Assembly (NCBI RefSeq): GCF_050320075.1
Contig: NZ_CP190018.1
Reading direction: 5' to 3' (one strand)
Length of the DNA stretch: 64,000 nt
DNA from: Escherichia coli
Lineage (GTDB): Bacteria > Pseudomonadota > Gammaproteobacteria > Enterobacterales > Enterobacteriaceae
Under the pieces are notes generated by a model, which saw nothing but the letters and a program-made list of their open reading frames with translations, did no database searches and had not been told where the DNA came from. The number at the start of each line of letters is the position of its first letter. Within the stretch, counting starts at the first letter, position 1. The translations under genes and the position numbers were made by a program. Below, in pieces: positions 41,961-64,000 of the stretch.

Positions 41961-43209
41961 GAGTTCCCCGCGCCAGCGGGGATAAACCGTTTGCTGAGTG
42001 TGCATACACACTTGAACATCAGAGTTCCCCGCGCCAGCGGGGATAAACCGCTATCAGTAACAACCTGGTAAATATCGGTTTTGAGTTCCCCGCGCCAGCG
42101 GGGATAAACCGTTTTCGGGGCCATAAATGGCGCTCATTTATGTGAGTTCCCCGCGCCAGCGGGGATAAACCGGGAAAATAAACGCGTTATTCCTTGATGG
42201 GTGCGAGTTCCCCGCGCCAGCGGGGATAAACCGAGCAACAGGTATTTCATATGGCCTGCCGTGCTGAGTTCCCCGCGCCAGCGGGGATAAACCGGCCAGC
42301 GGCGCTGAGTACGACGACCTGATTAAGAGTTCCCCGCGCCAGCGGGGATAAACCGTCAATACAACAGCAATGCTGGAGCTGGAAAAAGAGTTCCCCGCGC
42401 CAGCGGGGATAAACCGTGGTGGGATAGCTGCTCTGCCAGCGTGTCGCGGAGTTCCCCGCGCCAGCGGGGATAAACCGTGGGCGCAGCTCATGTATTCCAA
42501 TAAGGATATGAGTTCCCCGCGCCAGCGGGGATAAACCGAGATTCGCGCAATGTACGGTAAAGACAGCACCGAGTTCCCCGCGCCAGCGGGGATAAACCGC
42601 CATTCTTGTTGTCGTTCATCAAGCGCAGGGGGAGTTTCCCGCGCCAGCGGGGATAAACCGTTTGTTTTGATGATTTATCAGTATATGAATTGGAGTTCCC
42701 CGCGCCAGCGGGGATAAACCGATTTTTGCGCGGCCTGCATGAAACCAGTGGCAAAGTTCCCCGCGCCAGCGGGGATAAACCGGTACCGTTGAGCAATGGT
42801 GGGTAAATGGTGCTGAGTTCCCCGCGCCAGCGGGGATAAACCGATTTAGATACGGCACACAGGAATGCGCTGGATGAGTTCCCCGCGCCAGCGGGGATAA
42901 ACCGCATGGGAGTCCAGATTACAAATTCCAGAATGGGAGTTCCCCGCGCCAGCGGGGATAAACCGCGCCAGTCTGAGGTTTTCCGGTCATACATCGTGAG
43001 TTCCCCGCGCCAGCGGGGATAAACCGACCGTTGCTACACATATGATCAGGCATGTGCCGAGTTCCCCGCGCCAGCGGGGATAAACCGGACGATGAGACGC
43101 CCTGGTGTGCCGCGTTCGTGAGTTCCCCGCGCCAGCGGGGATAAACCGCGTTTAGCTCCGCAATGTTGGATATCACTGATGAGTTCCCCGCACCAGCGGG
43201 AATAAACCA
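41961..43209 (+). CRISPR. type I-E CRISPR array, 21 repeats and 20 spacers
   Basis: 29-bp repeat GAGTTCCCCGCGCCAGCGGGGATAAACCG recurring with exact 61-bp periodicity (41961 + 61n); all spacers 32 bp and unique; last repeat (43181-43209) degenerate. Confidence 0.98.
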
Positions 43210-43680
43210 CCATATAACCCGTTATCTCTTTCTCAAGTTTTTATATTAGCAGTACTCGTATTAAGCAACATATCCACGTAACACCTCATGTTCAAAATAG
43301 CTCTCCATATATGAGAAGTTCACAATTATCGATACAAAAAATCAAATTTAATCAAAGTGTTATTTGTATAATCCTTAAACCGTTAAGAAATTTTAACATA
43401 TTATTTTTTTAATATTAATTAATGCCTGTTAATTTTTTCTTTAGAATAACAGTGTATTTTTTAAGCTTGTTATTCATTGATTAAGTAATAAATCTGGAAA
43501 TTTGTCTTTGTTTTGAGGCTAATGAGTGGTTTTACATAATCGCCTCTATACGCTGTTGATGAATAGTTCTTATGAATAAAGATATCCAGTTCATACTTTA
43601 AGTGAAAATTGATAAAGTGCGATTCGTATTGTCTTTTATTCTAAAGACATCGAGTGTAGTTAATATTCCTTGTAAAAACA

Positions 43681-43800
43681 GGGATAAACCGAACTAGTTA
43701 AAGTTTTTATTATGTTCCCTGCATCAGCGGGGATAAACCGGACTTGTTATCATTTTTTAAGTTGTCGAACTTATGTTCCCCGCGCCAGCGGGGATAACCA
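43681..43800 (+). CRISPR. remnant mini-array (partial repeat, two degenerate repeats, two spacers)
   Basis: GGGATAAACCG fragment (43681-43691), degenerate repeat ATGTTCCCTGCATCAGCGGGGATAAACCG (43712-43740), 32-bp spacer (43741-43772), degenerate repeat ATGTTCCCCGCGCCAGCGGGGATAACCA (43773-43800). Confidence 0.8.
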
Positions 43801-43846
43801 TTCAGGTATGTTCAGGCCGGGCAGTTTCCCGCCCGGTCTTCCTCAC

Positions 43847-47733: not shown

Positions 47734-47802
47734 TCCATAACGGTGGTTTCTGTTTTCTCTTATTAATGATTATTCCATTTTTATTATCAGGAAGGAATTA
47801 CT

Positions 47803-49257
47803 ATGTCTTTATCTCGCGCAGCGATTGTCGACCAGCTAAAGGAAATTGTTGGTGCAGATCGCGTAATTACCGATGAAACAGTATTAAAGAAGAACAGTAT
47901 TGACCGTTTTCGCAAATTTCCGGATATTCATGGCATTTATACTTTGCCGATTCCGGCAGCGGTCGTAAAACTCGGTTCCACAGAACAAGTATCCCGTGTG
48001 CTGAATTTTATGAATGCGCACAAAATTAACGGTGTGCCGCGTACCGGTGCTTCCGCTACCGAAGGTGGGCTGGAAACCGTTGTGGAAAACTCGGTGGTGC
48101 TCGACGGCTCTGCCATGAATCAAATCATTAATATTGATATTGAGAATATGCAGGCCACGGCGCAATGCGGAGTTCCGCTGGAAGTGCTGGAAAACGCGTT
48201 GCGTGAAAAAGGTTACACCACGGGGCATTCTCCGCAGTCAAAGCCGCTGGCGCAGATGGGCGGCCTGGTAGCAACCCGCAGTATCGGGCAGTTCTCCACA
48301 CTCTACGGCGCAATCGAAGATATGGTCGTTGGTCTGGAAGCAGTATTGGCTGATGGCACCGTAACACGCATTAAAAACGTACCACGCCGCGCGGCAGGCC
48401 CGGACATTCGTCACATCATCATCGGCAACGAAGGTGCATTGTGCTATATCACTGAAGTAACTGTGAAAATCTTTAAGTTCACCCCGGAAAACAACCTCTT
48501 CTACGGCTATATCCTGGAAGACATGAAAACCGGCTTCAACATCCTGCGTGAAATCATGGTGGAAGGGTATCGTCCGTCGATCGCTCGTTTGTATGACGCT
48601 GAAGATGGCACCCAACACTTCACCCATTTTGCTGACGGAAAATGCGTGCTGATCTTTATGGCTGAAGGTAACCCTCGCATTGCGAAGGCGACGGGCGAAG
48701 GGATTGCTGAAATCGTGGCACGTTACCCGCAATGCCAGCGAGTGGACAGCAAGCTGATCGAAACCTGGTTTAACAACCTGAACTGGGGACCGGATAAAGT
48801 AGCTGCCGAACGTGTGCAGATCCTCAAAACCGGCAACATGGGCTTTACCACCGAAGTGTCCGGCTGCTGGAGCTGCATTCACGAAATCTACGAAAGCGTT
48901 ATTAACCGTATTCGTACCGAGTTCCCGCACGCCGACGACATCACCATGCTGGGCGGTCACTCCTCTCACAGCTACCAGAACGGCACCAACATGTACTTCG
49001 TTTACGACTACAACGTTGTTGACTGTAAGCCGGAAGAGGAAATCGACAAGTACCACAATCCGCTCAACAAAATCATCTGCGAAGAAACCATTCGCCTCGG
49101 TGGTTCGATGGTGCACCACCACGGCATTGGTAAACATCGCGTTCACTGGAGCAAGCTGGAACACGGCAGCGCGTGGACGTTGCTGGAAGGTCTGAAAAAG
49201 CAGTTCGATCCTAACGGCATTATGAATACGGGTACTATCTATCCGATTGAAAAATAA
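47803..49257 (+). CDS. ygcU: FAD-linked oxidase (GlcD / alkyl-DHAP-synthase-like)
   Basis: 484-aa ORF with FAD-binding PCMH-type domain. Confidence 0.85.
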   Translation: MSLSRAAIVDQLKEIVGADRVITDETVLKKNSIDRFRKFPDIHGIYTLPIPAAVVKLGSTEQVSRVLNFMNAHKINGVPRTGASATEGGLETVVENSVVLDGSAMNQIINIDIENMQATAQCGVPLEVLENALREKGYTTGHSPQSKPLAQMGGLVATRSIGQFSTLYGAIEDMVVGLEAVLADGTVTRIKNVPRRAAGPDIRHIIIGNEGALCYITEVTVKIFKFTPENNLFYGYILEDMKTGFNILREIMVEGYRPSIARLYDAEDGTQHFTHFADGKCVLIFMAEGNPRIAKATGEGIAEIVARYPQCQRVDSKLIETWFNNLNWGPDKVAAERVQILKTGNMGFTTEVSGCWSCIHEIYESVINRIRTEFPHADDITMLGGHSSHSYQNGTNMYFVYDYNVVDCKPEEEIDKYHNPLNKIICEETIRLGGSMVHHHGIGKHRVHWSKLEHGSAWTLLEGLKKQFDPNGIMNTGTIYPIEK

Positions 49258-49298
49258 TGTGTCAGGCAGCGTTCCGCGATGACGGGGCGTTGCCTTTT

Positions 49299-49328
49299 CG
49301 GCTTCTCAGGCGAGAAGCCGTTCTTATT
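49299..49328 (+). terminator. hairpin between ygcU and ygcS (weak terminator or attenuator)
   Basis: CGGCTTCTC-aggc-GAGAAGCCG followed by TTCTTATT. Confidence 0.45.
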
Positions 49329-49350
49329 ACCGGACAATGAAGGGATAAAG

Positions 49351-50688
49351 ATGAACACTTCACCGGTGCGAATGGATGATTTACCACTTAACCGTTTTCA
49401 CTGCCGCATTGCTGCGCTCACTTTCGGCGCACACCTGACCGACGGTTATGTCCTCGGCGTCATTGGTTACGCCATTATTCAGCTTACGCCCGCCATGCAA
49501 CTGACGCCGTTTATGGCGGGAATGATTGGCGGCTCAGCACTCCTTGGTTTGTTTCTTGGCAGCCTGGTTCTGGGCTGGATCTCCGACCATATTGGGCGAC
49601 AAAAAATCTTCACCTTCAGCTTTTTGCTGATTACGCTTGCTTCGTTTTTACAATTTTTTGCCACCACGCCAGAGCATCTTATTGGACTGCGCATTTTGAT
49701 TGGCATTGGTCTGGGAGGCGATTACTCAGTCGGTCACACCTTGCTGGCTGAATTTTCCCCGCGCCGCCACCGCGGTATTTTGCTGGGCGCGTTCAGCGTG
49801 GTGTGGACTGTAGGCTATGTGCTGGCAAGTATTGCCGGACATCACTTTATTAGCGAAAGCCCGGAGGCCTGGCGCTGGCTGCTGGCATCGGCAGCTCTGC
49901 CCGCATTGTTGATTACGTTATTACGCTGGGGAACGCCAGAATCGCCACGCTGGCTACTGCGCCAGGGGCGTTTTGCAGAAGCTCACGCTATCGTGCATCG
50001 CTATTTTGGTCCCCATGTTTTACTGGGCGATGAAGTGGCAACGGCGACCCATAAACACATCAAAACCTTGTTCTCTTCGCGCTACTGGCGGCGCACAGCG
50101 TTTAACAGCGTCTTCTTTGTCTGCCTCGTAATCCCATGGTTTGTGATTTATACCTGGCTGCCAACTATCGCCCAGACTATTGGTCTGGAAGATGCGTTGA
50201 CCGCTAGCCTGATGCTTAATGCGTTGTTAATTGTGGGTGCGCTGCTGGGATTAGTTCTGACGCACCTGCTGGCACATCGCAAATTTTTGCTGGGAAGTTT
50301 TTTGCTGCTGGCGGCAACGCTGGTAGTGATGGCTTGTTTGCCTTCCGGCAGTTCATTAACGCTGCTGCTTTTTGTTCTCTTCAGCACCACCATTTCGGCA
50401 GTCAGTAATCTGGTGGGCATTTTGCCTGCGGAAAGTTTTCCTACTGACATTCGCTCGCTGGGCGTCGGTTTTGCCACCGCCATGAGTCGGTTGGGCGCGG
50501 CGGTAAGTACTGGCCTGCTGCCGTGGGTGCTGGCGCAGTGGGGAATGCAAGTCACCTTATTGCTCCTGGCGGCAGTGTTGTTGGTTGGTTTTGTCGTGAC
50601 CTGGCTATGGGCACCAGAAACCAAAGCACTCCCGCTGGTGGCGGCGGGAAATGTTGGAGGTGCGAATGAACATTCTGTTAGCGTTTAA
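49351..50688 (+). CDS. ygcS: MFS sugar-porter-type transporter
   Basis: ORF 49279..50688; start placed at MNTSPVRMDDL giving 445 aa; 12-TM profile. Confidence 0.85.
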   Translation: MNTSPVRMDDLPLNRFHCRIAALTFGAHLTDGYVLGVIGYAIIQLTPAMQLTPFMAGMIGGSALLGLFLGSLVLGWISDHIGRQKIFTFSFLLITLASFLQFFATTPEHLIGLRILIGIGLGGDYSVGHTLLAEFSPRRHRGILLGAFSVVWTVGYVLASIAGHHFISESPEAWRWLLASAALPALLITLLRWGTPESPRWLLRQGRFAEAHAIVHRYFGPHVLLGDEVATATHKHIKTLFSSRYWRRTAFNSVFFVCLVIPWFVIYTWLPTIAQTIGLEDALTASLMLNALLIVGALLGLVLTHLLAHRKFLLGSFLLLAATLVVMACLPSGSSLTLLLFVLFSTTISAVSNLVGILPAESFPTDIRSLGVGFATAMSRLGAAVSTGLLPWVLAQWGMQVTLLLLAAVLLVGFVVTWLWAPETKALPLVAAGNVGGANEHSVSV

Positions 50689-51445
50689 AGCCGAACCGGA
50701 TGCCGGAATGCTGGCGGAAAAAGAGTGGCAGGCGGCGGCTCAGGGTAATAGCGGACCGGATGTTTCGCTTCTGCGAAGTTTGCTCGGTGCTGATGAACAG
50801 GCTGCCGCCGCGCTGCTGTTGGCGCAGAGAAAAAACGGTACGTCGATGTCTTTAACCGCGTTGAGCATGGGGGATGAACGGGCGTTGCACTGGCTGCGCT
50901 ATCTTATGGCTCTTGGGTTTGAGGAAGCTGTATTGCTGGAGACGGCGGCAGATCTGCGCTTTGCGCCGGAATTTGTCGCTCGCCATATTGCCGAATGGCA
51001 GTACCAGAATCCGCTGGAGCTGATAATTACTGGCTGCCAAAGCAGCGAAGGGCAGAATGGGCAAACGCCATTTTTGCTGGCGGAAATGCTGGGCTGGCCC
51101 TGCTTCACCCAGGTGGAGCGTTTTACTCTCGACGCGCCGTTTATCACCCTTGAACAGCGTACTGAAAACGGGCTGCGCTGTTGCCGGGTTCGCTTGCCTG
51201 CGGTGATTGCCGTGCGTCAGTGCGGTGAAGTGGCCTTGCCAGTACCGGGAATGCGTCAGCGAATGGCGGTGGGGAAAGCAGCAATTATCCGTAAAACTGT
51301 TGCTGCCGAATCGCCAGCGATGCAGTGTCTGCAACTGGCAAGAGCAGAGCAACAACGCGGAGCGACGCTGATTGATGGGCAAACGGTAGCAGAAAAAGCG
51401 CAAAAGCTATGGCAGGACTATTTACGCCAAAGGATGCAGCCATGA
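50666..51445 (+). CDS. ygcR: electron-transfer flavoprotein beta-subunit-like (FixA-like)
   Basis: ORF 50651..51445; start placed at MNILLAFK giving 259 aa; overlaps ygcS 3' end. Confidence 0.8.
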   Translation: MNILLAFKAEPDAGMLAEKEWQAAAQGNSGPDVSLLRSLLGADEQAAAALLLAQRKNGTSMSLTALSMGDERALHWLRYLMALGFEEAVLLETAADLRFAPEFVARHIAEWQYQNPLELIITGCQSSEGQNGQTPFLLAEMLGWPCFTQVERFTLDAPFITLEQRTENGLRCCRVRLPAVIAVRQCGEVALPVPGMRQRMAVGKAAIIRKTVAAESPAMQCLQLARAEQQRGATLIDGQTVAEKAQKLWQDYLRQRMQP

Positions 51446-52302
51446 ATATCGCAATTGTGACAATAAATCAGGAGAATGCCGCAACAGCGAGCTGGCAGGC
51501 GGCGCAGGATTTCAGCGGTTGTACCCTGGCGCACTGGAAGATTGAACCTCAGCCCGCTGTGGCGGAACAGGTGCTGGATGCGCTGGTGGAACAGTGGCAG
51601 CGAACGCCAGCGGACGTTGTTCTCTTTCCGCCGGGAACGTTTGGCGATGAACTGTCGACCCGGCTGGCCTGGCGTTTACATGGTGCAAGCATCTGCCAGG
51701 TGACTTCGTTAGATATTCCAACCGTAAGCGTGCGCAAATCCCACTGGGGAAATGCGCTAACGGCGACGCTGCAAACAGAAAAACGCCCGCTATGCCTTTC
51801 GCTGGCACGTCAGGCGGGAGCAGATAAAAACGCCACGTTGCCCTCTGGTATGCAGCAACTGAACATTGTCCCAGGTGCGCTTCCCGACTGGCTGGTTAGC
51901 ATAGAAAACCTGAAAAATGTTACCCGCGACCCATTAGCTGAGGCCAGACGGGTGCTGGTGGTGGGGCAGGGCGGAGAGGCAGATAACCAGGAAATCGCTA
52001 TGCTGGCAGAAAAGCTGGGAGCCGAAGTGGGCTACAGTCGGGCACGAGTGATGAACGGTGGCGTTGATGCCGAAAAAGTGATTGGTATTTCTGGACATCT
52101 GCTGGCACCTGAGGTGTGTATTGTTGTTGGCGCTTCCGGCGCAGCAGCGTTAATGGCGGGCGTACGCAATAGCAAGTTTGTGGTGGCGATTAATCATGAC
52201 GCCAGCGCAGCGGTATTTTCACAGGCAGATGTTGGCGTGGTTGATGACTGGAAAGTGGTGCTGGAGGCACTGGTGACAAACATTCACGCAGAATGCCAAT
52301 AA
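51442..52302 (+). CDS. ygcQ: electron-transfer flavoprotein alpha-subunit-like (FixB-like)
   Basis: ORF 51409..52302; start placed at MNIAIVTINQ giving 286 aa; ATGA overlap with ygcR. Confidence 0.8.
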   Translation: MNIAIVTINQENAATASWQAAQDFSGCTLAHWKIEPQPAVAEQVLDALVEQWQRTPADVVLFPPGTFGDELSTRLAWRLHGASICQVTSLDIPTVSVRKSHWGNALTATLQTEKRPLCLSLARQAGADKNATLPSGMQQLNIVPGALPDWLVSIENLKNVTRDPLAEARRVLVVGQGGEADNQEIAMLAEKLGAEVGYSRARVMNGGVDAEKVIGISGHLLAPEVCIVVGASGAAALMAGVRNSKFVVAINHDASAAVFSQADVGVVDDWKVVLEALVTNIHAECQ

Positions 52303-52350
52303 CGTGCAGCCGGATGATCCTGCCTACGGTTTCGGGCTGGGGACTTGTAA

Positions 52351-53124
<774 letters not shown>

Positions 53125-53228
53125 ATCAGCATACTTGTCCTTAGCCTTCTGCAGTGACAGCTGGTAGTACAGCGTGCTTCTGGCCAGCCCTGCAGCCTTT
53201 AACAGGTCAGACTGGCAGTGTCCGCACC

Positions 53229-53750
53229 TCAGGCTCCGGATGACTTTCGTTTTTTCTCCAGCTCCTGGCGCTTTTTTTCCAGGAGATGCTCCTGCATGGC
53301 TTTCAGATATGCATTTTCTGCGCGAAGATAACGTAGCTCATTCTTCATCTCTTCCGGCGTCATGTTTGCCTCGTTTTCATGGGTATCATCAGAACGGGTC
53401 ATGCTTTTCTCCTTCCTGCGCCTGATAAAGGCCTCATTACCAGATTTGCGGTAGCCTTTTATCCAGTTTTTAACCGTGTTGTGGCTGGGAATGTTAAACC
53501 GGGCAGCTACCCGGGGTAGAGACTCAGAATGCCCGAGAGCATAAAGAACCACGCAAAGTTTATCTTCAGGAGAATAGCTACGCTTGTGTCTGCAATCCAG
53601 TGCCCGAGGACCGTGAAGAAGAAAAAGATTAATCCAGTGTGAGAGGCTGGTGTGAGAAAGTTGAAAGAGTTTTGCCGTAGAAATGATGCCTGCATGACCA
53701 GCCAGGTAATGATTTACAGCGGCAAGTTTTACTTCAAATGAATGTTTCAT
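53229..53750 (-). CDS. IS3-family transposase OrfA (HTH DNA-binding, leucine-zipper region)
   Basis: ORF 53229..53759; likely ATG start at 53748-53750 (MKHSFEVKLAAVNHY) giving 173 aa. Confidence 0.85.
   Translation of the reverse strand: MKHSFEVKLAAVNHYLAGHAGIISTAKLFQLSHTSLSHWINLFLLHGPRALDCRHKRSYSPEDKLCVVLYALGHSESLPRVAARFNIPSHNTVKNWIKGYRKSGNEAFIRRRKEKSMTRSDDTHENEANMTPEEMKNELRYLRAENAYLKAMQEHLLEKKRQELEKKRKSSGA
53271..53278 (-). other. candidate -1 programmed ribosomal frameshift site (A AAA AAG)
   Basis: Minus-strand A7G run about 45 nt upstream of the orfA stop, at the orfA/orfB overlap. Confidence 0.6.
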
Positions 53751-53801
53751 AAACTGCACCTTCAGATGTCAGATTATGTCCAACATTTGGGGTGCAGTTC
53801 A

Positions 53802-53819
53802 TCAAGCGTCGCATCAGGC
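53802..53819. repeat. right half of the REP split by the IS insertion (TCAA plus arm)
   Basis: TCAA + GCGTCGCATCAGGC, complementary to the left half at 52351-52365. Confidence 0.7.
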
Positions 53820-53884
53820 GCTGAATGTCGGATGTGGCGTGCAGCCTACAAATCACACAAATTCAACTCGTTACGAGTATCCCG

Positions 53885-54460
53885 TCAAAGCAATTTTTTC
53901 GCTAACGTCCAGACCCCGGTATTCGTGGTGGAAAGCGCCACAACACCCGCGTTAATCGCATTACGCGCATCTTCTTCATCGCACACCAGCCCGCCGGCAA
54001 TCAGCGGTTGGCGGATTTTCTCCGTCACCCAGCCCAGCACTTTAGGCATACAGCCTGGCAGGATCTCAATACAATCCGGATTCGATTGCGCAACTTGCTT
54101 ATCAATGTTGTGAAACGAAATCGAATCAACAATAAACAGGCGATGAATACAGAAAAAACCTTCCGCTCTTGCCGCTTTCAGCATCGATGCTTTCGTGCTG
54201 ATAATGCCGTCCGCCTCGGTCACCAGTTTCAGAAACTGAATCACCACTTCTTTGTTCGATGCGCCTTCCAGCAAATCAACATGAATAAAGGCATATTTTC
54301 CGGCGTTTTTAATCTTTTTAACGATATTACTGATGGTGCAGATATTGCCGTACAACACTGAAATAAACTGGCATTCAGAATCGATTGCCAGTTGCAGGCT
54401 GGCATTATCTTTAACGGCAGCAATCACCGGATTCTGGCGGAGCAGGTGTAAGAGGGGCAT
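53885..54460 (-). CDS. ygcP: GlpP-like glycerol-3-phosphate-responsive antiterminator family protein
   Basis: 191-aa ORF recognised as YgcP (G3P-antiterminator family). Confidence 0.8.
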   Translation of the reverse strand: MPLLHLLRQNPVIAAVKDNASLQLAIDSECQFISVLYGNICTISNIVKKIKNAGKYAFIHVDLLEGASNKEVVIQFLKLVTEADGIISTKASMLKAARAEGFFCIHRLFIVDSISFHNIDKQVAQSNPDCIEILPGCMPKVLGWVTEKIRQPLIAGGLVCDEEDARNAINAGVVALSTTNTGVWTLAKKLL

Positions 54461-54476
54461 AAATTATCCTTATTAT

Positions 54477-54737
54477 TTATCCAAAGCGGTAGGTGATGCC
54501 GAATCCGGAAGGCGGATAGCGCCACTGTTGTAGTGTTGATTCGTCGCACAGCAAACGGCAGGTGCCACACTCCAGGCAGCCGCGATAATCAACGCGTAAG
54601 TCACCTTCCGGTGTGAGCGAAAAAAGACCAGCCGGACAAGCGTTAATCAACCGTTGTACCGTCTGGCGCTCAACGGAGTCAGCCGGAACAATGTGCGGCG
54701 CATCGGCAACGCGCCAGAGATTACGGGCTACAGACAT
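54477..54737 (-). CDS. ygcO: FixX-like ferredoxin
   Basis: ORF 54477..54773; start placed at MSVARNLW giving 86 aa; Cys cluster CLECGTCRLLC. Confidence 0.8.
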   Translation of the reverse strand: MSVARNLWRVADAPHIVPADSVERQTVQRLINACPAGLFSLTPEGDLRVDYRGCLECGTCRLLCDESTLQQWRYPPSGFGITYRFG

Positions 54738-55999
54738 CGCAGACTCCTGATAACATCGCCCGCCAGATGCCACAGGCCGTGACGACGTAAATGACGCCAG
54801 AATAACTGGCGCAGCGGTGGAACAGGTTTATCACCCTGATCCCATAAATCGCGGGAAATATCCTGCATTAACGCAGGCCACGCACGGTACCAGCCAGGGC
54901 GTTGCAAAAGCGCCGGAACATGCTGATAACGTTGTAGAACATCCCATAGCAGGCTGCGCTCGACGTTGTGATGATAAAGCGGAAACAGATTTTGCGGCTC
55001 GCGGTGCTGGCAGGCGCTTATCAGCGTTTGTGCCGCCGCCTGCGCGCCAGTTAGCGCCATATCCATGCCGCGCACGGAAATTCCGGTATTGACGCAACTG
55101 CGCAACGCATCGCCCAGCAGCAGCCAGCCGTTACCGGCGTATTGCACCGGCATACTGTGCAAGCCACCTTCTGGCACCAGATGCGCACCATACTCCAGTG
55201 ATTCCGTGTTTTTGATAAGCGGGCGCACTGCCGGATGCGTTTTAAAGCGAGCCAGCAGCTCGCTTGCCGGAACACGACTTTGCGTAAGGGAAGAGAGCGG
55301 GCAAACAATCCCTAACGAGAGCGTTTGTTGATTAGTATAAAGAAATGCGCCGCCGGGTAAGTCATCACAGATCCCGCCGCTGAACAGCAACGCTGCGTCT
55401 TCGTTATTCTCCAGATGAAAACGTTCTTCAATAGCGGATGTTTCCAGCGACAGCACTTCTTTGATCCCCAACGCCATCGCTTCGCCAGCAGGACGAGTCA
55501 CTAACCCGTGACGTTCAGCCAGGACGCTGTTGGCACCTTCTGCCAGCACCACATAACGGGCGCGGAGAATATCGTCACCACAAATGACACCACACACCCT
55601 GCCGTTTTCTTCATACAGCGCATCCACCGTCGCACCGGGGATGCATTCGACACCTTCTTTTTCGGCTTCGGCAACCAGCCACGGATCGAACCGTGCACGT
55701 AATACACTCCAGGATTCACCGCCGGGCTGTAAGCTGGAAAACGTCGTTGCGCCATCCGGCGTTAGCAGAGAAAGGCTTTCGTGAGTGATGCGTCGTTCAA
55801 GAGGCGCGGTCAGATGAAATTGCGGGAGGAGTTCCGCGAGCGCATGGGTGTATAAACGCCCGCCGGAAAGATTTTTGCTGCCGGGGATTTCAGCGCGTTC
55901 CAGTAACAGAACGGACAAACCTGCCCGCGCGCAGCGTAAAGCACAAGCGGTACCTGCTATACCGGCACCAATAATAATAATGTCGCAGTTGTCTTCCAT
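54728..55999 (-). CDS. ygcN: FixC-like FAD-dependent oxidoreductase (ETF-quinone oxidoreductase family)
   Basis: ORF 54728..56029; start placed at MEDNCDIIIIGAGIAG giving 423 aa; FAD-binding GxGxxG. Confidence 0.82.
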   Translation of the reverse strand: MEDNCDIIIIGAGIAGTACALRCARAGLSVLLLERAEIPGSKNLSGGRLYTHALAELLPQFHLTAPLERRITHESLSLLTPDGATTFSSLQPGGESWSVLRARFDPWLVAEAEKEGVECIPGATVDALYEENGRVCGVICGDDILRARYVVLAEGANSVLAERHGLVTRPAGEAMALGIKEVLSLETSAIEERFHLENNEDAALLFSGGICDDLPGGAFLYTNQQTLSLGIVCPLSSLTQSRVPASELLARFKTHPAVRPLIKNTESLEYGAHLVPEGGLHSMPVQYAGNGWLLLGDALRSCVNTGISVRGMDMALTGAQAAAQTLISACQHREPQNLFPLYHHNVERSLLWDVLQRYQHVPALLQRPGWYRAWPALMQDISRDLWDQGDKPVPPLRQLFWRHLRRHGLWHLAGDVIRSLRCL

Positions 56000-56076
56000 G
56001 TCATGCCCCAGATATCCAGAACACAACACCCTAACATGGCGTTACTTAAGGGAAATTGACCGCCGACACACTCTTA

Positions 56077-56442
56077 TCATTCGCCGCGATAGATACAGCC
56101 TGCAGTACAGGTTTCTTTTACCATCACCGCACTTAACAGCGGCACAACGGGTTTAACCTGATCCCAAATCCATTTTGCTAAAACTTCGCTGGTTGGGTTT
56201 TCCAGACCTGGAATATCATTGAGATAATGGTGATCGAGGCGCTCGTAGGTTGGCTTAAACGCCGCTTTCAGTTCAGCGAAATCGATAATCCAGCCCGTAT
56301 GCGGATCGACTTCCCCGGTAATTTCCAGTCGCACCATAAAGGAATGCCCGTGCAGGCGACCACATTTATGCCCTTCCGGGACGTGTGGTAAGCGGTGAGC
56401 GGCTTCGAAGGTGAAATCTTTAAATAACGTGGTGGACATCAT
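56077..56442 (-). CDS. queD: 6-carboxy-5,6,7,8-tetrahydropterin synthase (queuosine biosynthesis)
   Basis: ORF 56077..56526; start placed at [10 protein letters not shown] giving 121 aa; PTPS His motifs (CGRLHGHSF). Confidence 0.88.
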
Positions 56443-56757
56443 AATTTCTCTACAGGACGATAAAACCGCCGTAGAGTACCGGAAAGGCTGTTTTTTCGCA
56501 TTATCTAAAACGACTTTGTTGCGCAAAATCGCTGATTTATCTTATTGATGGGCAATATTCATTTGTTTTTCATTGGGTTGGTTAATCTATTTTGTTGTTA
56601 AAGACTATTGCTAAAACAGGTTAGTCGATTTGGTTATTAGTTATCGCTATCCCGTCTTTAATCCACACCGTTCACCCCGTTAACCTTATCTTCTCTTCTG
56701 TTTTATGGGCGCTGACAGGGCGCAGAAACAGCTTTGCTTACTGGAACATAACGACGC
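56443..56757. promoter_or_regulatory. cysJIH promoter region (divergent from queD)
   Basis: 315-bp AT-rich interval upstream of cysJ; CysB sites expected from established knowledge but not mapped here. Confidence 0.5.
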
Positions 56758-58557
56758 ATGACGACACAGGTCCCACCTTCCGCGTTGCTTCCGTTGAACC
56801 CGGAGCAACTGGCACGCCTTCAGGCGGCCACGACCGATTTAACTCCCACCCAGCTTGCCTGGGTTTCTGGCTATTTCTGGGGCGTGCTCAACCAGCAGCC
56901 AGCTGCGCTTGCAGCGACGCCAGCGCCCGCCGCAGAAATGCCGGGTATAACTATTATCTCCGCTTCGCAAACCGGCAATGCGCGCCGGGTTGCTGAAGCA
57001 TTACGCGATGATTTATTGGCGGCAAAACTGAACGTTAAGCTGGTGAACGCGGGCGACTATAAATTCAAACAAATCGCCAGCGAAAAACTGCTTATCGTGG
57101 TGACGTCAACGCAAGGAGAAGGGGAACCGCCGGAAGAAGCCGTCGCGCTGCATAAGTTCCTGTTCTCCAAAAAAGCGCCGAAGCTGGAAAACACCGCATT
57201 TGCCGTGTTTAGCCTCGGCGATAGCTCTTATGAATTTTTCTGCCAGTCCGGGAAAGATTTTGACAGCAAGCTGGCGGAACTGGGCGGTGAACGCCTGCTC
57301 GACCGTGTCGATGCCGACGTTGAATACCAGGCTGCTGCCATCGAGTGGCGCGCCCGCGTGGTTGATGCGCTTAAATCGCGTGCGCCTGTCGCGGCACCTT
57401 CGCAATCCGTCGCTACTGGCGCGGTAAATGAAATCCACACCAGCCCGTACAGCAAAGACGCGCCGCTGGTGGCGAGCCTCTCTGTTAACCAGAAAATTAC
57501 CGGGCGTAACTCTGAAAAAGACGTTCGCCATATCGAAATTGACTTAGGTGACTCGGGCCTGCGTTACCAGCCGGGTGACGCGCTGGGCGTCTGGTATCAG
57601 AACGATCCGGCACTGGTGAAAGAACTTGTCGAACTGCTGTGGCTGAAAGGTGATGAACCTGTCAACGTTGAGGGCAAAACCCTGCCGCTGAACGAAGCGC
57701 TACAGTGGCACTTCGAACTGACCGTCAACACCGCCAACATTGTTGAGAACTATGCCACGCTTACCCGCAGCGAAACGCTGCTGCCGCTGGTGGGCGATAA
57801 AGCGAAGTTACAGCATTACGCCGCGACGACGCCGATTGTCGACATGGTGCGTTTCTCTCCGGCGCAACTGGATGCCGAAGCGCTGATTAACCTGCTGCGC
57901 CCGCTGACCCCGCGCCTGTATTCCATCGCCTCCTCGCAGGCGGAAGTCGAGAACGAAGTACACGTCACCGTTGGCGTGGTGCGTTACGACGTGGAAGGCC
58001 GCGCCCGTGCCGGTGGTGCCTCCAGCTTCCTCGCGGATCGCGTGGAAGAAGAGGGTGAAGTCCGCGTCTTTATCGAACATAACGATAACTTCCGCCTGCC
58101 CGCTAACCCGCAAACGCCGGTGATTATGATTGGCCCAGGCACCGGCATCGCGCCGTTCCGCGCCTTTATGCAGCAACGCGCCGCCGACGAAGCGCCGGGG
58201 AAAAACTGGCTGTTCTTTGGCAACCCGCACTTTACGGAAGATTTCCTCTACCAGGTGGAATGGCAGCGCTACGTCAAAGAGGGCGTGCTGACGCGTATCG
58301 ATCTTGCCTGGTCGCGCGATCAAAAAGAAAAAATTTACGTACAAGACAAACTGCGCGAACAGGGCGCAGAGCTGTGGCGCTGGATCAATGACGGTGCCCA
58401 CATTTATGTCTGCGGCGACGCTAATCGCATGGCGAAAGACGTTGAGCAGGCACTTCTGGAAGTGATTGCCGAATTTGGTGGCATGGACACCGAAGCGGCG
58501 GATGAATTTTTAAGTGAGCTGCGCGTAGAGCGCCGTTATCAGCGAGATGTCTACTAA
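56758..58557 (+). CDS. cysJ: sulfite reductase [NADPH] flavoprotein alpha component
   Basis: 599-aa ORF recognised as CysJ (flavodoxin and FNR-like domains). Confidence 0.95.
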
Positions 58558-60269
58558 TGAGCGAAAAACATCCAGGGCCTTTAGTGGTCGAAGGAAAACT
58601 GACAGACGCCGAGCGCATGAAGCTTGAAAGCAACTACCTGCGCGGCACCATTGCGGAAGATTTAAACGACGGTCTGACCGGCGGCTTTAAGGGCGATAAC
58701 TTCCTGCTGATCCGCTTCCACGGCATGTATCAGCAGGATGACCGCGACATCCGCGCCGAACGTGCTGAACAGAAGCTGGAGCCACGTCATGCAATGCTGT
58801 TGCGCTGCCGTCTGCCGGGTGGCGTGATTACCACCAAACAGTGGCAGGCGATCGATAAATTTGCCGGTGAAAACACCATCTATGGCAGCATTCGCCTGAC
58901 CAACCGCCAGACGTTTCAGTTCCACGGCATTCTGAAAAAGAACGTCAAACCGGTGCACCAGATGCTGCACTCGGTCGGTCTTGATGCGCTGGCGACTGCT
59001 AACGACATGAACCGTAACGTACTCTGCACCTCGAACCCTTACGAGTCGCAGCTACACGCGGAAGCGTATGAATGGGCGAAGAAAATCTCTGAACATCTGC
59101 TGCCGCGTACCCGCGCGTATGCGGAGATCTGGCTCGATCAGGAAAAAGTCGCCACCACCGATGAAGAACCGATCCTCGGTCAGACTTATTTGCCGCGTAA
59201 ATTCAAAACTACGGTAGTGATCCCGCCGCAGAACGATATCGATCTGCATGCCAACGACATGAACTTCGTGGCAATCGCCGAAAACGGCAAGCTGGTGGGC
59301 TTTAACCTGTTGGTGGGCGGTGGGCTTTCTATCGAACACGGCAACAAGAAAACCTACGCCCGCACGGCGAGTGAGTTTGGCTATCTGCCGCTGGAGCATA
59401 CGCTGGCGGTGGCAGAAGCCGTCGTGACGACTCAGCGCGACTGGGGTAACCGTACCGATCGTAAAAATGCCAAAACCAAATACACGCTGGAGCGCGTGGG
59501 GGTTGAGACGTTTAAAGCGGAAGTGGAGCGTCGCGCGGGGATCAAATTTGAACCGATCCGTCCATATGAGTTCACCGGACGCGGCGATCGTATTGGCTGG
59601 GTTAAAGGCATTGATGATAACTGGCACCTGACGCTGTTTATCGAAAATGGTCGCATCCTTGATTATCCTGGGCGTCCGCTGAAAACCGGCCTGCTGGAGA
59701 TCGCGAAGATCCACAAAGGCGATTTCCGCATTACGGCGAACCAGAATCTGATCATCGCCGGTGTGCCGGAAAGCGAGAAAGCGAAGATCGAGAAGATTGC
59801 CAAAGAGAGCGGGTTAATGAATGCCGTCACGCCGCAGCGTGAAAACTCAATGGCCTGCGTGTCATTCCCGACTTGCCCGCTGGCGATGGCCGAAGCCGAG
59901 CGTTTCCTGCCGTCTTTTATCGACAACATCGATAATTTAATGGCGAAACATGGTGTCAGCGATGAGCATATCGTGATGCGTGTAACAGGCTGCCCGAACG
60001 GTTGTGGTCGCGCGATGCTGGCGGAAGTGGGCCTGGTGGGTAAAGCGCCGGGTCGCTACAACCTGCATCTTGGCGGCAACCGCATTGGGACACGTATCCC
60101 ACGGATGTATAAAGAAAACATCACCGAACCGGAAATCCTGGCGTCGCTTGATGAACTGATAGGGCGCTGGGCGAAAGAGCGCGAAGCGGGTGAAGGCTTC
60201 GGCGACTTTACGGTGCGTGCGGGCATCATTCGCCCGGTGCTCGATCCGGCGCGCGATTTGTGGGATTAA
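58557..60269 (+). CDS. cysI: sulfite reductase [NADPH] hemoprotein beta component
   Basis: 570-aa ORF recognised as CysI; TAATG overlap with cysJ. Confidence 0.95.
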
Positions 60270-60288
60270 CCATCAGCCCGGTCTTGTA

Positions 60289-60321
60289 GGCCTGATAAGA
60301 CGCGTGAGCGTCGCATCAGGC
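60289..60321. repeat. REP / palindromic unit between cysI and cysH
   Basis: GGCCTGATAAGACGCGTGAGCGTCGCATCAGGC, same arms as the REP split by the IS. Confidence 0.7.
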
Positions 60322-60342
60322 AAGGCAAACAGTGAGGAATCT

Positions 60343-61077
60343 ATGTCCAAACTCGATCTAAACGCCCTGAACGAACTGCCGAAGGTAGATCGCATTCTGG
60401 CGCTGGCAGAAACTAACGCCGAACTGGAAAAACTGGACGCTGAAGGCCGCGTTGCCTGGGCGCTGGATAATCTGCCCGGTGAATATGTACTTTCTTCCAG
60501 TTTCGGCATTCAGGCGGCGGTGAGCCTGCATCTGGTGAATCAGATTCGCCCGGATATTCCAGTGATCCTCACCGATACGGGTTACTTGTTCCCGGAAACC
60601 TACCGCTTTATTGACGAGTTAACGGACAAACTCAAGCTCAACCTGAAAGTGTACCGCGCTACCGAAAGCGCCGCCTGGCAGGAAGCACGTTACGGAAAAC
60701 TGTGGGAGCAGGGTGTTGAAGGCATTGAAAAGTACAATGACATCAACAAAGTCGAACCGATGAACCGGGCGCTGAAAGAACTGAATGCGCAAACCTGGTT
60801 TGCTGGCCTGCGCCGTGAACAATCCGGCAGCCGCACCAATTTACCGGTGCTGGCAATTCAGCGTGGCGTATTTAAAGTGCTGCCGATTATCGACTGGGAT
60901 AACCGAACTATTTATCAGTACCTGCAAAAACATGGCCTGAAATATCACCCATTATGGGATGAAGGATATTTATCGGTCGGTGATACCCATACAACCCGTA
61001 AATGGGAACCCGGCATGGCGGAAGAAGAAACGCGTTTCTTTGGCTTAAAAAGAGAATGTGGGTTACACGAAGGGTAA
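60343..61077 (+). CDS. cysH: phosphoadenosine phosphosulfate (PAPS) reductase
   Basis: ORF 60190..61077; start placed at [12 protein letters not shown] giving 244 aa; upstream extension overlaps the REP and is rejected. Confidence 0.93.
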
Positions 61078-61094
61078 ATATTGCCGGATAAATT

Positions 61095-61128
61095 AAACGC
61101 CTCTGTCAGAAATGATGGGGGCGTTTTT
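61095..61128 (+). terminator. putative terminator after cysH
   Basis: AAACGCC...GGCGTTT stem with TTTTT run; loop is long, so only moderate support. Confidence 0.4.
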
Positions 61129-61341
61129 ATTTTGCGAGCAGCATTCCTGATTTTAAACGTGAACGCCGCTGGAAGAATTATCAGGTATAGAATGGCGTTG
61201 GGTGCTTGAGGCTGTCTGGCGTTAAGCATTCGCGAGGTTCCAGATGGACAAAAGCCCCAGGCGATATTTCTATCAACCTGAGGCCAGCGTTCGAACCTAA
61301 GCAATTCGAATGTTAGTCTCTTCTTTGCAGGGAGGCAAGAC

Positions 61342-61494
61342 ATGCTGACAAAATATGCCCTTGTGGCAATCATCGTACTGTGTTGTACAGTACTGGGATT
61401 CACGCTGATGGTAGGCGACTCGTTGTGTGAGTTGAGTATCAGAGAACGTGGTATGGAGTTTAAGGCAGTTCTCGCTTACGAATCGAAGAAGTAG
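61342..61494 (+). CDS. Hok-family type I toxin (50 aa, HokE/HokX-like)
   Basis: ATG 61342 preceded by GGGAGG; product [50 protein letters not shown] has one TM helix and the conserved Hok C-terminal region; below the ORF-track size cutoff. Confidence 0.8.
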
Positions 61495-61688
61495 CCACCA
61501 CGCGGGGGTAAAACCCCGCGTATTGAATTGTGATGGTTTGGTCTCCTGCACCCTTTTTTAATTTATATTGTTTATGTGAATATTATGCCTATGTTTATTA
61601 TTCATATATATTACGGATGAAAATTATTTGATTATTCATAATGTAAATATTTTATTGAACGATATATATCACAGATAATTTTTAATAT
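61495..61688 (+). promoter_or_regulatory. AT-rich cas3 upstream region
   Basis: About 190 bp of more than 75 percent A+T immediately upstream of cas3; expected H-NS-silenced promoter from established knowledge of I-E cas loci. Confidence 0.4.
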
Positions 61689-64000
61689 ATGCGTAAATAT
61701 CCTTTAAGTTTACTGAAGGATAAAAATATTGTGACTTTTTTTGATTTCTGGGGAAAAACCCGACGCGGCGAGAAAGACGGGGGCGACGACTATCACCTTC
61801 TTTGCTGGCATTCGCTGGATGTAGCCGCGATGGGCTATTTAATGGTTAAAAGCAATTGCTTCGGGCTGACTGACTATTTTCGTCAACTAGGTTTCGCTGA
61901 TACGGAGCAGGCAGCACAATTTTTCGCCTGGCTATTGTGCTGGCACGATACTGGAAAATTTGCCCGCTCTTTTCAGCAACTTTACCTGCACCCACAACTC
62001 AAGGTTCCGGAAGGCGCAAGAAAGAATTACGAAAAGATCTCTCATTCAACGCTGGGCTACTGGCTGTGGCATCATTATTTAAGTGAATACGAAGAATTGC
62101 TTCCTTCATCTTCACTCTCTCCGCGCAAACTTAAACGGGTGATGGAGATGTGGATGCCCATGACTACCGGGCATCATGGTCGGCCCCCTGACCGTATTGA
62201 TGAACTGGATAATTTTCTGCCTGAAGACAAAGCTGCCGCACGAGATTTTCTCCTTGAAATCAAGGTACTGTTTCCGCTCATCGAGATCCCCGCATTCTGG
62301 GATGATGACGAGGGCATTGAACTTTTAAAACAACTTTCCTGGTATATCTCTGCAACCGTCGTACTCGCAGACTGGACGGGATCGTCAACGCGGTTTTTTC
62401 CACGCGTTGCACAGGCAATGGATATTAAAGATTACTGGCAGAAGGCTTTAGTTCAGGCTCAAAACGCCTTAACCGTCTTTCCTCCAAAAGCACAAACCGC
62501 GCCTTTCACCGGAATTAATACGCTGTTTCCTTTTATTGAGCACCCGACACCGTTACAGCAAAAGGTGCTGGATCTGGATATCAGCCAGCCTGGGCCACAG
62601 TTATTTATTCTGGAGGATGTGACTGGCGCAGGTAAAACAGAAGCGGCGCTTATCCTGGCCCACAGGTTGATGGCTGCGGGGAAAGCACAGGGTTTGTTTT
62701 TTGGCCTGCCAACAATGGCAACGGCCAATGCCATGTACGATCGGCTGGTAAAAACCTGGCTTGCTTTCTATTCGCCAGAATCCCGCCCCAGCCTGGTGCT
62801 GGCACACAGTGCCCGCACATTAATGGACCGCTTTAATGAATCACTCTGGTCCGGTGATTTAGTCGGGTCAGAAGAACCGGATGAACAAGCGTTCAGTCAG
62901 GGATGTGCGGCCTGGTTTGCCGACAGTAACAAGAAGGCGTTGCTGGCTGAAATTGGCGTCGGCACGCTGGATCAGGCGATGATGGCGGTGATGCCGTTTA
63001 AACATAATAATCTGCGGCTTCTGGGACTGAGTAACAAAATCCTGCTGGCTGATGAGATCCATGCCTGTGACGCTTACATGTCGTGCATTCTTGAAGGATT
63101 GATTGAGCGGCAGGCGCGTGGAGGAAACAGCGTTATTTTGCTTTCTGCCACGTTATCTCAACAGCAGCGCGACAAACTCGTTGCTGCCTTTGCGCGTGGT
63201 GCAGAGGGCCAGCAAGAAGCTCCGTTCCTGGAAAAGGATGATTACCCCTGGCTGACGCACGTTACGAAATCGGATGTGCATTCACACCGGGTAGCAACGC
63301 GCAAAGACGTTGAGCGTAGCGTGAGCGTGGGTTGGCTTCATAGCGAACAAGAATGTATTGCGCGTATCGAATCGGCAGTAAGTCAGGGGAAATGCATCGC
63401 CTGGATCCGGAATTCTGTCGATGACGCTATTAAGGTTTATCGTCAGTTGCTTGCCCGCGGCGTCATTCCTGCTTCCAGCCTTTCTCTGTTTCATAGCCGC
63501 TTTGCTTTTAGCGATCGCCAGCGAATTGAAACGGAAACGCTGGCACGCTTCGGTAAAAGTTGTAGTTTACAGAGATCATCGCAAGTCATTGTTTGTACAC
63601 AAGTAATTGAACAAAGTGTGGATATTGACCTGGACGAAATGATATCCGACCTGGCCCCTGTTGATTTGCTGATCCAACGGGCGGGGCGATTACAGCGGCA
63701 TATCCGCGATATTAATGGTCAGTTAAAGCGTGACGGAAAAGACGAGCGTTCCCCTCCTGAATTGCTGATTCTGGCCCCCGTCTGGGACGACGCTCCAGGT
63801 GACGAATGGTTCGGCAGTGCCATGCGTAACAGTGCATATGTCTATCCCGATCATGGACGAATCTGGCTGACGCAGCGTGTACTGCGTGAGCAAGGCGCGA
63901 TTCAAATGCCACACGCAGCCCGCCTTCTTATTGAATCAGTCTACGGTGAGGACGTGGTAATGCCGGAAGGATTTGCCCGCAGCGAGCAGGAACAAGTGGG
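61689..64000 (+). CDS. cas3: type I-E Cas3 (HD nuclease plus DExH helicase), 3' end outside window
   Basis: Frame open from ATG 61689 (alternative GTG 61731 with AGGA upstream) to the window end; HD-domain motifs (HLLCWHSLDVAAMG, LLCWHDTGKF), Walker A GAGKTEAA, DExH-like LADEIHACD. Confidence 0.9.
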   Translation, partial: MRKYPLSLLKDKNIVTFFDFWGKTRRGEKDGGDDYHLLCWHSLDVAAMGYLMVKSNCFGLTDYFRQLGFADTEQAAQFFAWLLCWHDTGKFARSFQQLYLHPQLKVPEGARKNYEKISHSTLGYWLWHHYLSEYEELLPSSSLSPRKLKRVMEMWMPMTTGHHGRPPDRIDELDNFLPEDKAAARDFLLEIKVLFPLIEIPAFWDDDEGIELLKQLSWYISATVVLADWTGSSTRFFPRVAQAMDIKDYWQKALVQAQNALTVFPPKAQTAPFTGINTLFPFIEHPTPLQQKVLDLDISQPGPQLFILEDVTGAGKTEAALILAHRLMAAGKAQGLFFGLPTMATANAMYDRLVKTWLAFYSPESRPSLVLAHSARTLMDRFNESLWSGDLVGSEEPDEQAFSQGCAAWFADSNKKALLAEIGVGTLDQAMMAVMPFKHNNLRLLGLSNKILLADEIHACDAYMSCILEGLIERQARGGNSVILLSATLSQQQRDKLVAAFARGAEGQQEAPFLEKDDYPWLTHVTKSDVHSHRVATRKDVERSVSVGWLHSEQECIARIESAVSQGKCIAWIRNSVDDAIKVYRQLLARGVIPASSLSLFHSRFAFSDRQRIETETLARFGKSCSLQRSSQVIVCTQVIEQSVDIDLDEMISDLAPVDLLIQRAGRLQRHIRDINGQLKRDGKDERSPPELLILAPVWDDAPGDEWFGSAMRNSAYVYPDHGRIWLTQRVLREQGAIQMPHAARLLIESVYGEDVVMPEGFARSEQEQV

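Follow-up and report, generated by a model that had tools for sequence, protein, structure and literature searches.

A cas-E1 (O157:H7-type) cas3 gene at the usual type I-E locus of Escherichia coli

The cas3 gene that runs off the end of the 64 000-nucleotide stretch of Escherichia coli DNA analysed here (the window) is supported as belonging to the cas-E1 variant of the E. coli type I-E system, which is also known as the 'cas-EO' or O157:H7-type variant. It is very nearly certain that this is a cas-E1 type I-E cas3 at its usual site, with E1 being prevalent and probably ancestral and the E2 set being a replacement in K-12 and its relatives. The E1 variant at this locus has already been described, and the finding is thus an ordinary one without novelty. 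Two cas-E sets exist in E. coli; E1, the major cluster, groups with the sets of Salmonella and Escherichia albertii, and E2 is carried by K-12 and a minority of strains, mostly of phylogroup A (Almendros et al. 2014, PMC3903273). According to the same study, hok/sok is present in every strain except E2 carriers, the leader of the CRISPR2.1 array (L1 or L2) is variant-specific and the CRISPR-II locus is conserved; the published mean GC contents are 53.5 % for E1 and 45.6 % for E2 (PMC3903273). The cas-EK and cas-EO sets, along with their repeat types and acquisition motifs, were described by Diez-Villasenor et al. (2013, PMC3737337), and O157:H7 is the reference E1/'cas-EO' strain (PMC3903273, PMC3737337). 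Since nearly all biochemistry has been done on the K-12 set, and E1 rather than that set is found in most E. coli with type I-E, the case is a caution for annotation and for extrapolation from the model strain. Spacer acquisition, for example, follows the motif CTT in the K-12 set but CWT in that of O157:H7 type (PMC3737337). For the strain from which the window comes, the assignment identifies a carrier of E1 with an apparently intact cas3, and raises no new question.

Assignment to the E1 set

The window cas3 groups with O157:H7-type strains and away from K-12. By BLASTP, its product is 30 % identical to K-12 Cas3 (YgcB, b2761; cas-E2) over 780 aligned positions (E 3e-77). The sequence-only reading had held Cas3 to be strongly divergent from K-12 and had named an identity above about 90 % as evidence against itself; the observed value is far under that figure, and the divergence stands. 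That reading had also proposed a comparison with other E. coli lineages, and here the gene is 93.5–100 % identical at the DNA level to cas3 of O157:H7, 95JB1, 5CRE51 and CFSAN061763. The O157:H7 E1 set has the same locus (cysH-hokX-cas3...iap), the same cas3 length of 2700 nt and an intact hokX, and cas3 of O157:H7 strain NE1127 is 93.5 % identical to the window gene in DNA and 94 % in protein. Megablast searches with the window cas3 and with the K-12 cas3 recovered separate sets of genomes: among 5426 complete E. coli genomes, 2777 have a window-type cas3 (at least 90 % DNA identity), always on the chromosome, and 1177 have a K-12-type cas3. The window carries a lineage-specific allele, as only 175 of the 2777 match it at 99 % identity or more, with 2301 falling at 90–95 %. 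A GC content near or above the genome mean is expected of E1 (PMC3903273), and that of the window cas3 is 50.5 %, versus 50.7 % for the whole window and 44.7 % for K-12 cas3.

The left flank is likewise of E1 type, with an intact Hok ORF and an Rfam sok match lying between cysH and cas3 (Table 1). Homology to K-12 runs at ~99 % across cysH and sokX and ends immediately 3' of the hokX ATG (61342-61344); the K-12 hokX is truncated directly after its ATG, so that the K-12 operon is without the hokX coding region that is intact in the window. The hokX-cas3 intergenic region is specific to E1 strains, contains a GC hairpin (ACGCGGGG-TAAA-CCCCGCGT) directly past the hokX stop, and is presumed to be the promoter or regulatory region of cas3. 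A sigma-70/terminator consensus scan of 61050-61800 returned no promoter-like site in this AT-rich spacer; its single sigma-70 site is inside hokX, fewer than in shuffles, and hence no promoter is claimed.

Table 1. Features of the CRISPR-II and cas3 regions of the window
Feature	Position	Strand	Basis or remark
CRISPR2.3 leader	~41760-41960		upstream of array
CRISPR2.3 array, CRISPR-II locus (queE/ygcF-ygcE)	41961..43209	+	21 repeats, 20 spacers
Degenerate repeats, CRISPR2.2 remnant	43663..43806	+	~0.5 kb downstream of main array
cysH, conserved left flank	60343..61077	+	99.6 % aa identity to K-12
Terminator-like hairpin past cysH	61095-61126		
hok/sok regulatory region	61200..61357	+	Rfam 'sok', 111.7 bits (gathering score 59)
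K-12 sokX annotation, mapped position	~61244-61302	minus	
hokX, intact	61342..61494	+	50-aa Hok/Gef type I toxin
hokX-cas3 intergenic region, AT-rich	61495..61688	+	28 % GC overall; 19 % GC over 61546-61688
cas-E1 cas3, 5' 770 codons	61689..64000	+	open frame past window end
HD nuclease domain, aa 21-237	61749..62399	+	Pfam Cas3_HD, E 4e-32
HD dyad H86/D87	61944-61949	+	alignment to K-12 H74/D75
TGHHG in HD domain	62166-62180	+	motif position
SF2 helicase core	62622..63704	+	Pfam, NCBIfam, alignment, motifs
Helicase motif I, TGAGKTE	62622-62642	+	
Helicase motif II, DEIH	63051-63062	+	
Helicase motif III, SAT	63144-63152	+	
Second RecA-like lobe, Cas3-like_C_2, aa 566-672	63384-63704	+	Pfam, E 6e-33
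Helicase motif VI, QRAGRLQRH	63675-63701	+	

Reading frame and domains of Cas3

Frame 1 of 61689-64000 comprises 770 codons with zero stops, and its translation begins MRKYPLSLLKDKNIVTFFDFWGKTRRGEKDGGDDYHLLCWHSLDVAAMGYL, exactly as had been quoted in the sequence-only reading. Thus, cas3 is apparently intact across the 5' portion contained in the window; identical alleles in annotated genomes have a full length of 2700 nt (899 aa), and the annotated Cas3 genes of complete genomes include 100 % DNA matches. The final 129 codons and the entire downstream operon lie beyond the window and are expected from near-identical genomes. Translation may start at the ATG at 61689 (the PGAP choice) or at a GTG at 61731, which has AAGGA 10 nt upstream. 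Among four alleles, the ATG and the 14 codons preceding the GTG are invariant; because the non-coding stretch just upstream of the ATG is also invariant, conservation cannot pick the start.

The HD and helicase motifs that had been noticed by eye are borne out by Pfam and NCBIfam domains and by the presence of all of the catalytic motifs, and the protein would therefore qualify as a type I Cas3, i.e. a fused HD nuclease and SF2 helicase. The N-terminal HD phosphohydrolase domain has the H...HD...H...H pattern, and motifs I and II of the helicase core are of Walker A and DExH type. The full-length identical allele passes the NCBIfam models cas3_core (TIGR01587; 224.6 bits, cutoff 102.45) and cas3_HD (TIGR01596; 88.8 bits, cutoff 43.45), and scores 423.9 bits against the K-12-type equivalog NF007248, below the cutoff of 569; with an identity of only 29–30 %, it thus appears to fall outside the K-12-type (NF007248/cas-E2) family. 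Nonetheless, K-12 Cas3 and the window-type protein share subtype I-E, chromosomal position, catalytic residues and domain order, with HD followed by the SF2 helicase and a C-terminal domain. In the alignment, window residues H86/D87 correspond to H74/D75 of K-12, K316 to K320, D455-E-I-H to D452-E-V-H, and S486/T488 to S483/T485. The K-12 residues aligned here are known from mutagenesis, their mutation abolishing activity (PMC6897959).

When compared with solved structures, the protein has full-length matches to type I-E Cas3 entries 4Q2C/4Q2D (E 1.5e-80, aa 20-763) and 4QQW/6C66 (E 2e-64, aa 19-787), indicating a common architecture of HD, RecA1, RecA2, linker and C-terminal domain. Entries 4Q2C/4Q2D are Cas3 of Thermobaculum terrenum, and 4QQW, as well as 6C66 with Cascade, is that of Thermobifida fusca. 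Both are distant orthologues, belonging to other phyla, and the structure–sequence search found no structure of E. coli E1 Cas3. By analogy with the family, crRNA-loaded Cascade would form an R-loop on target DNA flanked by a PAM, Cse1/CasA would recruit Cas3, and the HD domain of Cas3 would nick the displaced strand; the SF2 helicase would then move 3'→5' on ATP while the HD site degrades DNA.

Operon and CRISPR arrays

Positions 47689-64000 of the window (16.3 kb) match strain CFSAN061763 with 2 mismatches, and in this proxy cas3 is followed by casA-casB-cas7e-cas5e-cas6e-cas1e-cas2e, the CRISPR2.1 array and iap. The full I-E operon order is seen in CFSAN061763, O157:H7, 95JB1 and 5CRE51. 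Of this operon, the window contains cas3 alone; the downstream genes are likely to be present in its strain, judging from these near-identical genomes, and the locus would read cysJIH - hokX/sokX - cas3 - Cascade genes - cas1 - cas2 - CRISPR2.1 - iap. The divergence of the proxy from K-12 is modular. Protein identities for Cas3 through Cas6e are, in order, 29, 21, not detectable, 30, 35 and 27 %, the undetectable case being CasB, for which BLASTP gave no similarity between proxy and K-12. Cas1 and Cas2 are 85 % identical, versus 21–35 % for Cas3 and the Cascade proteins, and the flanking genes are 98.5–100 % identical. GC content of the operon genes is 49.7–55.0 % in the proxy and 43.5–51.3 % in K-12.

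The sequence-only reading had suggested an alternate I-E variant next to a conserved array whose repeat was canonical. A non-K-12 variant is indeed present, but it is K-12 that carries the minority type, and what the window contains is the remote CRISPR-II array (CRISPR2.3), 18.5 kb upstream of cas3, the cas-adjacent array being beyond the window. The canonical nature of the repeat was upheld: CRISPR2.3 has 29-nt repeats and 32-nt spacers (61-nt spacing), and 18 of its 21 repeats are exactly GAGTTCCCCGCGCCAGCGGGGATAAACCG, the K-12 CRISPR-I repeat. The CRISPR-II array predates the swap of cas sets, and for this reason the same repeat occurs in both kinds of strain. The name CRISPR2.2 for the degenerate repeats follows PMC3737337 and PMC3903273. 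The array next to the cas genes changes together with the cas set, both in its leader and in the second base of its repeat; in CFSAN061763, its repeats are GTGTTCCCCGCG(C/T)CAGCGGGGATAAACCG ('type A', GTGTT...) and its leader is unlike that of K-12. Next to iap, the E1 and E2 variants have their oldest spacer and a degenerate terminal repeat in common. The CRISPR2.3 arrays of the window and of CFSAN061763 differ in internal spacers, and the strains are thus not identical. These differences were considered as recent spacer acquisition, and this was rejected, since the three leader-proximal spacers are common and the differences consist of internal blocks.

Direction of replacement, gene integrity and allelic variation

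E1 is the major and probably the ancestral set and the E2 of K-12 a minority replacement, a direction that rests on GC content, hokX truncation, prevalence and a published parsimony scenario rather than on a rooted phylogeny. The low-GC E2 segment would have replaced a stretch that begins a little way into hokX and ends in the CRISPR2.1 array, which accounts for Cas3 and the Cascade proteins being only 21–35 % identical between sets. An identity that low does mean that one of the two sets was imported instead of diverging in situ, and, with K-12 as the reference strain, the window cas3 might be taken for the recently imported cassette and the K-12 type for the native one. That reading is very unlikely, however, given that it is the window cas3 whose GC content is genome-like and the K-12 hokX that is cut after its ATG, as expected if a K-12 cassette overwrote hokX. 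Furthermore, window-type genomes outnumber K-12-type genomes, with many laboratory derivatives among the K-12-type matches listed, E1 is reported from Salmonella and E. albertii at this chromosomal position, and Almendros et al. likewise conclude that the K-12 set is the replacement (PMC3903273). Slightly less credible still is the idea of a pseudogene decaying within a silent CRISPR system. In its favour, some E. coli copies are truncated, with matches spanning only 67–76 % of the query, insertion sequences lie near cas3 in some genomes (IS421 in 5CRE51), and native I-E activity is generally low in E. coli, where these systems are commonly silent and H-NS repression is documented for K-12 (PMC3903273). 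Yet, the 770 codons are free of stops, the HD and helicase motifs are all intact, identical alleles are annotated at full length, and dN/dS against other E1 alleles is 0.14–0.19, which indicates purifying selection.

Within an E1 assignment, there is some small chance that cas3-casA of the window constitutes a sub-variant under diversifying or balancing selection, e.g. from anti-CRISPR proteins, that is moved by homologous recombination. The scarcity of genomes at 99 % identity or more relative to those at 90–95 % fits this, as does the finding that four E1 cas3 alleles are pairwise 93.5–96.3 % identical in DNA when their flanking genes are 96–98 % identical. In addition, the flanks of 5CRE51 are identical and its casB-cas6e genes nearly so, but over a 3.9-kb tract of cas3 and casA it differs by ~4 %, and this tract seems to have been exchanged among E1 lineages. 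Against it, dN/dS is well under 1, recombination among E1 genes has already been reported (PMC3903273), and the twofold excess of divergence would equally arise if constraint were relaxed on a gene that is seldom used. That the ~6 % divergence among E1 cas3 alleles (roughly double the value for the flanks) and the 3.9-kb exchange reflect selection for diversity at the Cas3–Cse1 interface, e.g. for escape from anti-CRISPRs, is similarly improbable. Relaxed constraint plus ordinary recombination is an alternative for both observations. The window allele, at ~94 % identity to most E1 genomes, was also considered as a third variant and rejected, as the E1 alleles compared are about equidistant from one another, the flanks in those genomes are 96–98 % identical, and the genes agree in length and order.

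Divergence and integrity of the window cas3

The locus at the end of the window is the ordinary majority form of the two type I-E cas sets of Escherichia coli, cas-E1 (E1, O157:H7-type), and it is K-12, with its cas-E2 (E2) set, that is the unusual one. Translation of the cas3 frame gave 770 codons without a stop and the N-terminus MRKYPLSLLKDKNIVTFFDFWGKTRRGEKDGGDDYHLLCWHSLDVAAMGYL... quoted in the sequence-only reading; as the ORF extends past the window end, it is absent from the complete-ORF listing. Against K-12 Cas3 (b2761; reference MG1655 locus, NC_000913.3 2874000-2892000), the fragment shows 30% identity in BLASTP (780 columns, E 3e-77), far under a refutation line of 90%, which confirms the divergence that had been claimed. 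Pfam recovered the HD and helicase motifs, also noticed then, as Cas3_HD (aa 21-237, E 4e-32) and the C-terminal helicase lobe of Cas3 (aa 566-672, E 6e-33). With a full-length identical allele, the curated NCBIfam cutoffs of cas3_core (TIGR01587) and cas3_HD (TIGR01596) were passed, and that of the K-12-type equivalog NF007248 was not reached (423.9 bits vs a cutoff of 569). By sequence, the nearest solved structures are those of type I-E Cas3, namely 4Q2C (E 1.5e-80) and 4QQW/6C66 (E 2e-64).

At the aligned functional positions of K-12 Cas3, the window protein carries the same residues, namely H86/D87, K316, D455 (DEIH) and S486/T488, and its motif VI reads QRAGRLQRH. In K-12, mutagenesis has shown the importance of H74 in the HD domain, K320 in motif I and S483/T485 in motif III (PMC6897959). 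D75 and D452 are further functional residues of K-12 Cas3. Since the catalytic residues match, the gene is a divergent but intact-looking orthologue; together with the lack of stops and a dN/dS of 0.14-0.19 vs other E1 alleles, their conservation argues that Cas3 has been kept functional. As in other members of its family, crRNA-loaded Cascade would bind a PAM-flanked protospacer and form an R-loop, Cse1 would next recruit Cas3, Cas3 would nick the displaced strand at its HD site, and its SF2 motor would travel 3'->5' during DNA degradation.

The start of cas3 could be either of two codons: the annotated ATG (61689) is without a Shine-Dalgarno sequence, while an alternative GTG (61731) has AAGGA 10 nt upstream and gives an N-terminus nearer K-12 Cas3 in length; both candidates are unvarying across the four alleles compared. 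The spacer upstream of cas3 (19% GC) resembles the type of region silenced by H-NS in K-12, and a consensus scan of it gave no promoter call.

Features of the window and their counterparts in strain CFSAN061763 (L002, its cas locus; L003, its CRISPR2.3 array locus)
Feature	Window position	Strand	CFSAN061763 position	Description
CRISPR2.3 array	41961-43209		L003 4377-5259	window, 21 repeats, 20 spacers (32 nt each); CFSAN061763, 14 spacers
Degenerate array remnant	43663-43806			~0.5 kb downstream of CRISPR2.3 array
IS3-family transposase	~52402-53750		L002 4714-6062	between ygcQ and ygcP
sok	61200-61357			Rfam model, 111.7 bits
hokX	61342-61494	+		intact, 50 codons, Hok/Gef; directly upstream of cas3
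cas3	61689-64000	+		frame open to window end
Tract divergent in 5CRE51	~62139-64000		L002 14451-18317	runs on to casA end
CRISPR2.1 array			L002 22659-23419	cas-adjacent

The predicted operon beyond the window and the prevalence of its cas3

The final 16,312 window bases match CFSAN061763 (NZ_CP042899.1) with 2 mismatches and 0 gaps. There, cas3 has a length of 2700 nt (899 aa), and downstream of it lie casA, casB, cas7e, cas5e, cas6e, cas1e, cas2e, a CRISPR array and iap, a gene order identical in O157:H7 NE1127, 95JB1 and 5CRE51. The window strain and CFSAN061763 are not the same, as their CRISPR2.3 arrays differ, and the downstream operon of the window strain is therefore something that we infer, with good support from a near-identical genome, rather than observe. 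Comparing CFSAN061763 as proxy with K-12, identity is low in Cas3 (29%), CasA (21%), CasC (30%), CasD (35%) and CasE (27%), and CasB has no significant BLASTP match; Cas1 and Cas2 are each at 85%, and CysH, CysI, Iap and CysD at 98.5-100%. The GC content of cas3 is 50.6% (50.5% for the in-window part, 50.7% for the whole window) vs 44.7% for K-12 cas3.

When the 2312 nt of window cas3 were searched by megablast against 5426 complete E. coli genomes, 2777 matched, all chromosomally, with query coverage of at least 80% in 2472 of them. Identity was at least 99% in 175, 95-99% in 301 and 90-95% in 2301, and reached 100% in two genomes among the matches listed. K-12-type cas3 occurs in 1177 complete genomes, vs the 2777 with the E1 type; laboratory derivatives inflate the K-12 count, and several are among the matches listed.

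This E1/E2 picture is all published and already known, and each published structural point was reproduced by the measurements made here. The major cluster, cas-E1, groups with Salmonella and E. albertii (mean GC 53.5%), and cas-E2 (mean GC 45.6%) is found in K-12, most cas-bearing phylogroup A strains, S. dysenteriae Sd197 and E. fergusonii; hok/sok is carried by all strains but those with E2, the CRISPR2.1 leaders L1/L2 co-vary with the cas set, both variants have an iap-proximal spacer and a degenerate repeat in common, and CRISPR-II is conserved whichever variant is present (Almendros et al. 2014, mBio, PMC3903273). The same authors proposed that E2 replaced E1 by IS-mediated deletion, then insertion at the array. 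The two sets also differ in function, as spacers are acquired with a CTT motif by the K-12 set and a CWT motif by that of O157:H7 (Diez-Villasenor et al. 2013, PMC3737337).

Borders of the exchanged cassette

On the left, the window stays ~99% identical to K-12 past the cysH end and terminator and across the sokX region, and homology stops directly after the hokX ATG (61342-61344). K-12 retains just sokX and the hokX start, followed by ~90 nt of unrelated sequence and then its own cas3, so that the annotated K-12 sokX is an orphan left by cassette replacement. On the right, the oldest spacer and degenerate terminal repeat beside iap are common to the proxy and K-12, and the leaders and leader-proximal repeats of CRISPR2.1 are unlike. 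From these breakpoints, the swapped cassette starts within hokX and ends within the CRISPR2.1 array. In the window, hokX/sokX forms an intact type I toxin-antitoxin locus.

Arrays and variation within cas-E1

Lying between queE (ygcF) and ygcE, the window array is CRISPR2.3 of the CRISPR-II locus. Of its 21 units, 18 carry the repeat GAGTTCCCCGCGCCAGCGGGGATAAACCG, which matches that of K-12 CRISPR-I exactly, in agreement with the sequence-only reading, which called it canonical. That reading's suggestion of an alternate I-E variant beside a conserved array is supported in that the set is non-K-12 and CRISPR-II is conserved; however, the array lies 18.5 kb from cas3 and is thus not next to the cas genes, and the unusual form is that of K-12. 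The proxy CRISPR2.1 repeat is GTGTTCCCCGCG(C/T)CAGCGGGGATAAACCG, in which position 2 is T and the hairpin loop is polymorphic (C/T), a 'type A' repeat tied to the non-K-12 cas set, whereas the 'type T' repeat (GAGTT...) accompanies the K-12 set (Diez-Villasenor et al. 2013, PMC3737337). Two repeat types thus appear to coexist in one strain with one cas set. Position 2 and the hairpin loop distinguish the repeats of the two arrays, whose CCCCGC/GCGGGG stem is the same, so a single Cas6e could plausibly process both.

The CRISPR2.3 arrays of the window and CFSAN061763 have the leader, spacers 1-3 and the older spacers in common; where the window has spacers 4-10, CFSAN061763 has four others, and it lacks window spacers 14-16. 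Internal differences with a shared leader end indicate internal loss or recombination rather than recent leader-end acquisition.

Pairwise identity is 93.5-96.3% among four E1 cas3 alleles and 96-98% for cysJ, cysI and cysH in the genomes that carry them. The 5CRE51 locus (L006) and the window lineage have 100% identity in cysI, cysH, hokX and casB and 99.5-99.9% in cas7, cas5 and cas6e, and they differ by ~4% (dS 0.10-0.15) over ~3.9 kb that includes casA entirely and cas3 for the most part. The pattern resembles a homologous-recombination tract between E1 alleles; recombination among E1 genes was previously reported (Almendros et al. 2014, PMC3903273). In 5CRE51, IS421 is inserted between hokX and cas3, and in the window the IS3-family transposase, annotated in the matching genome, has a programmed frameshift.
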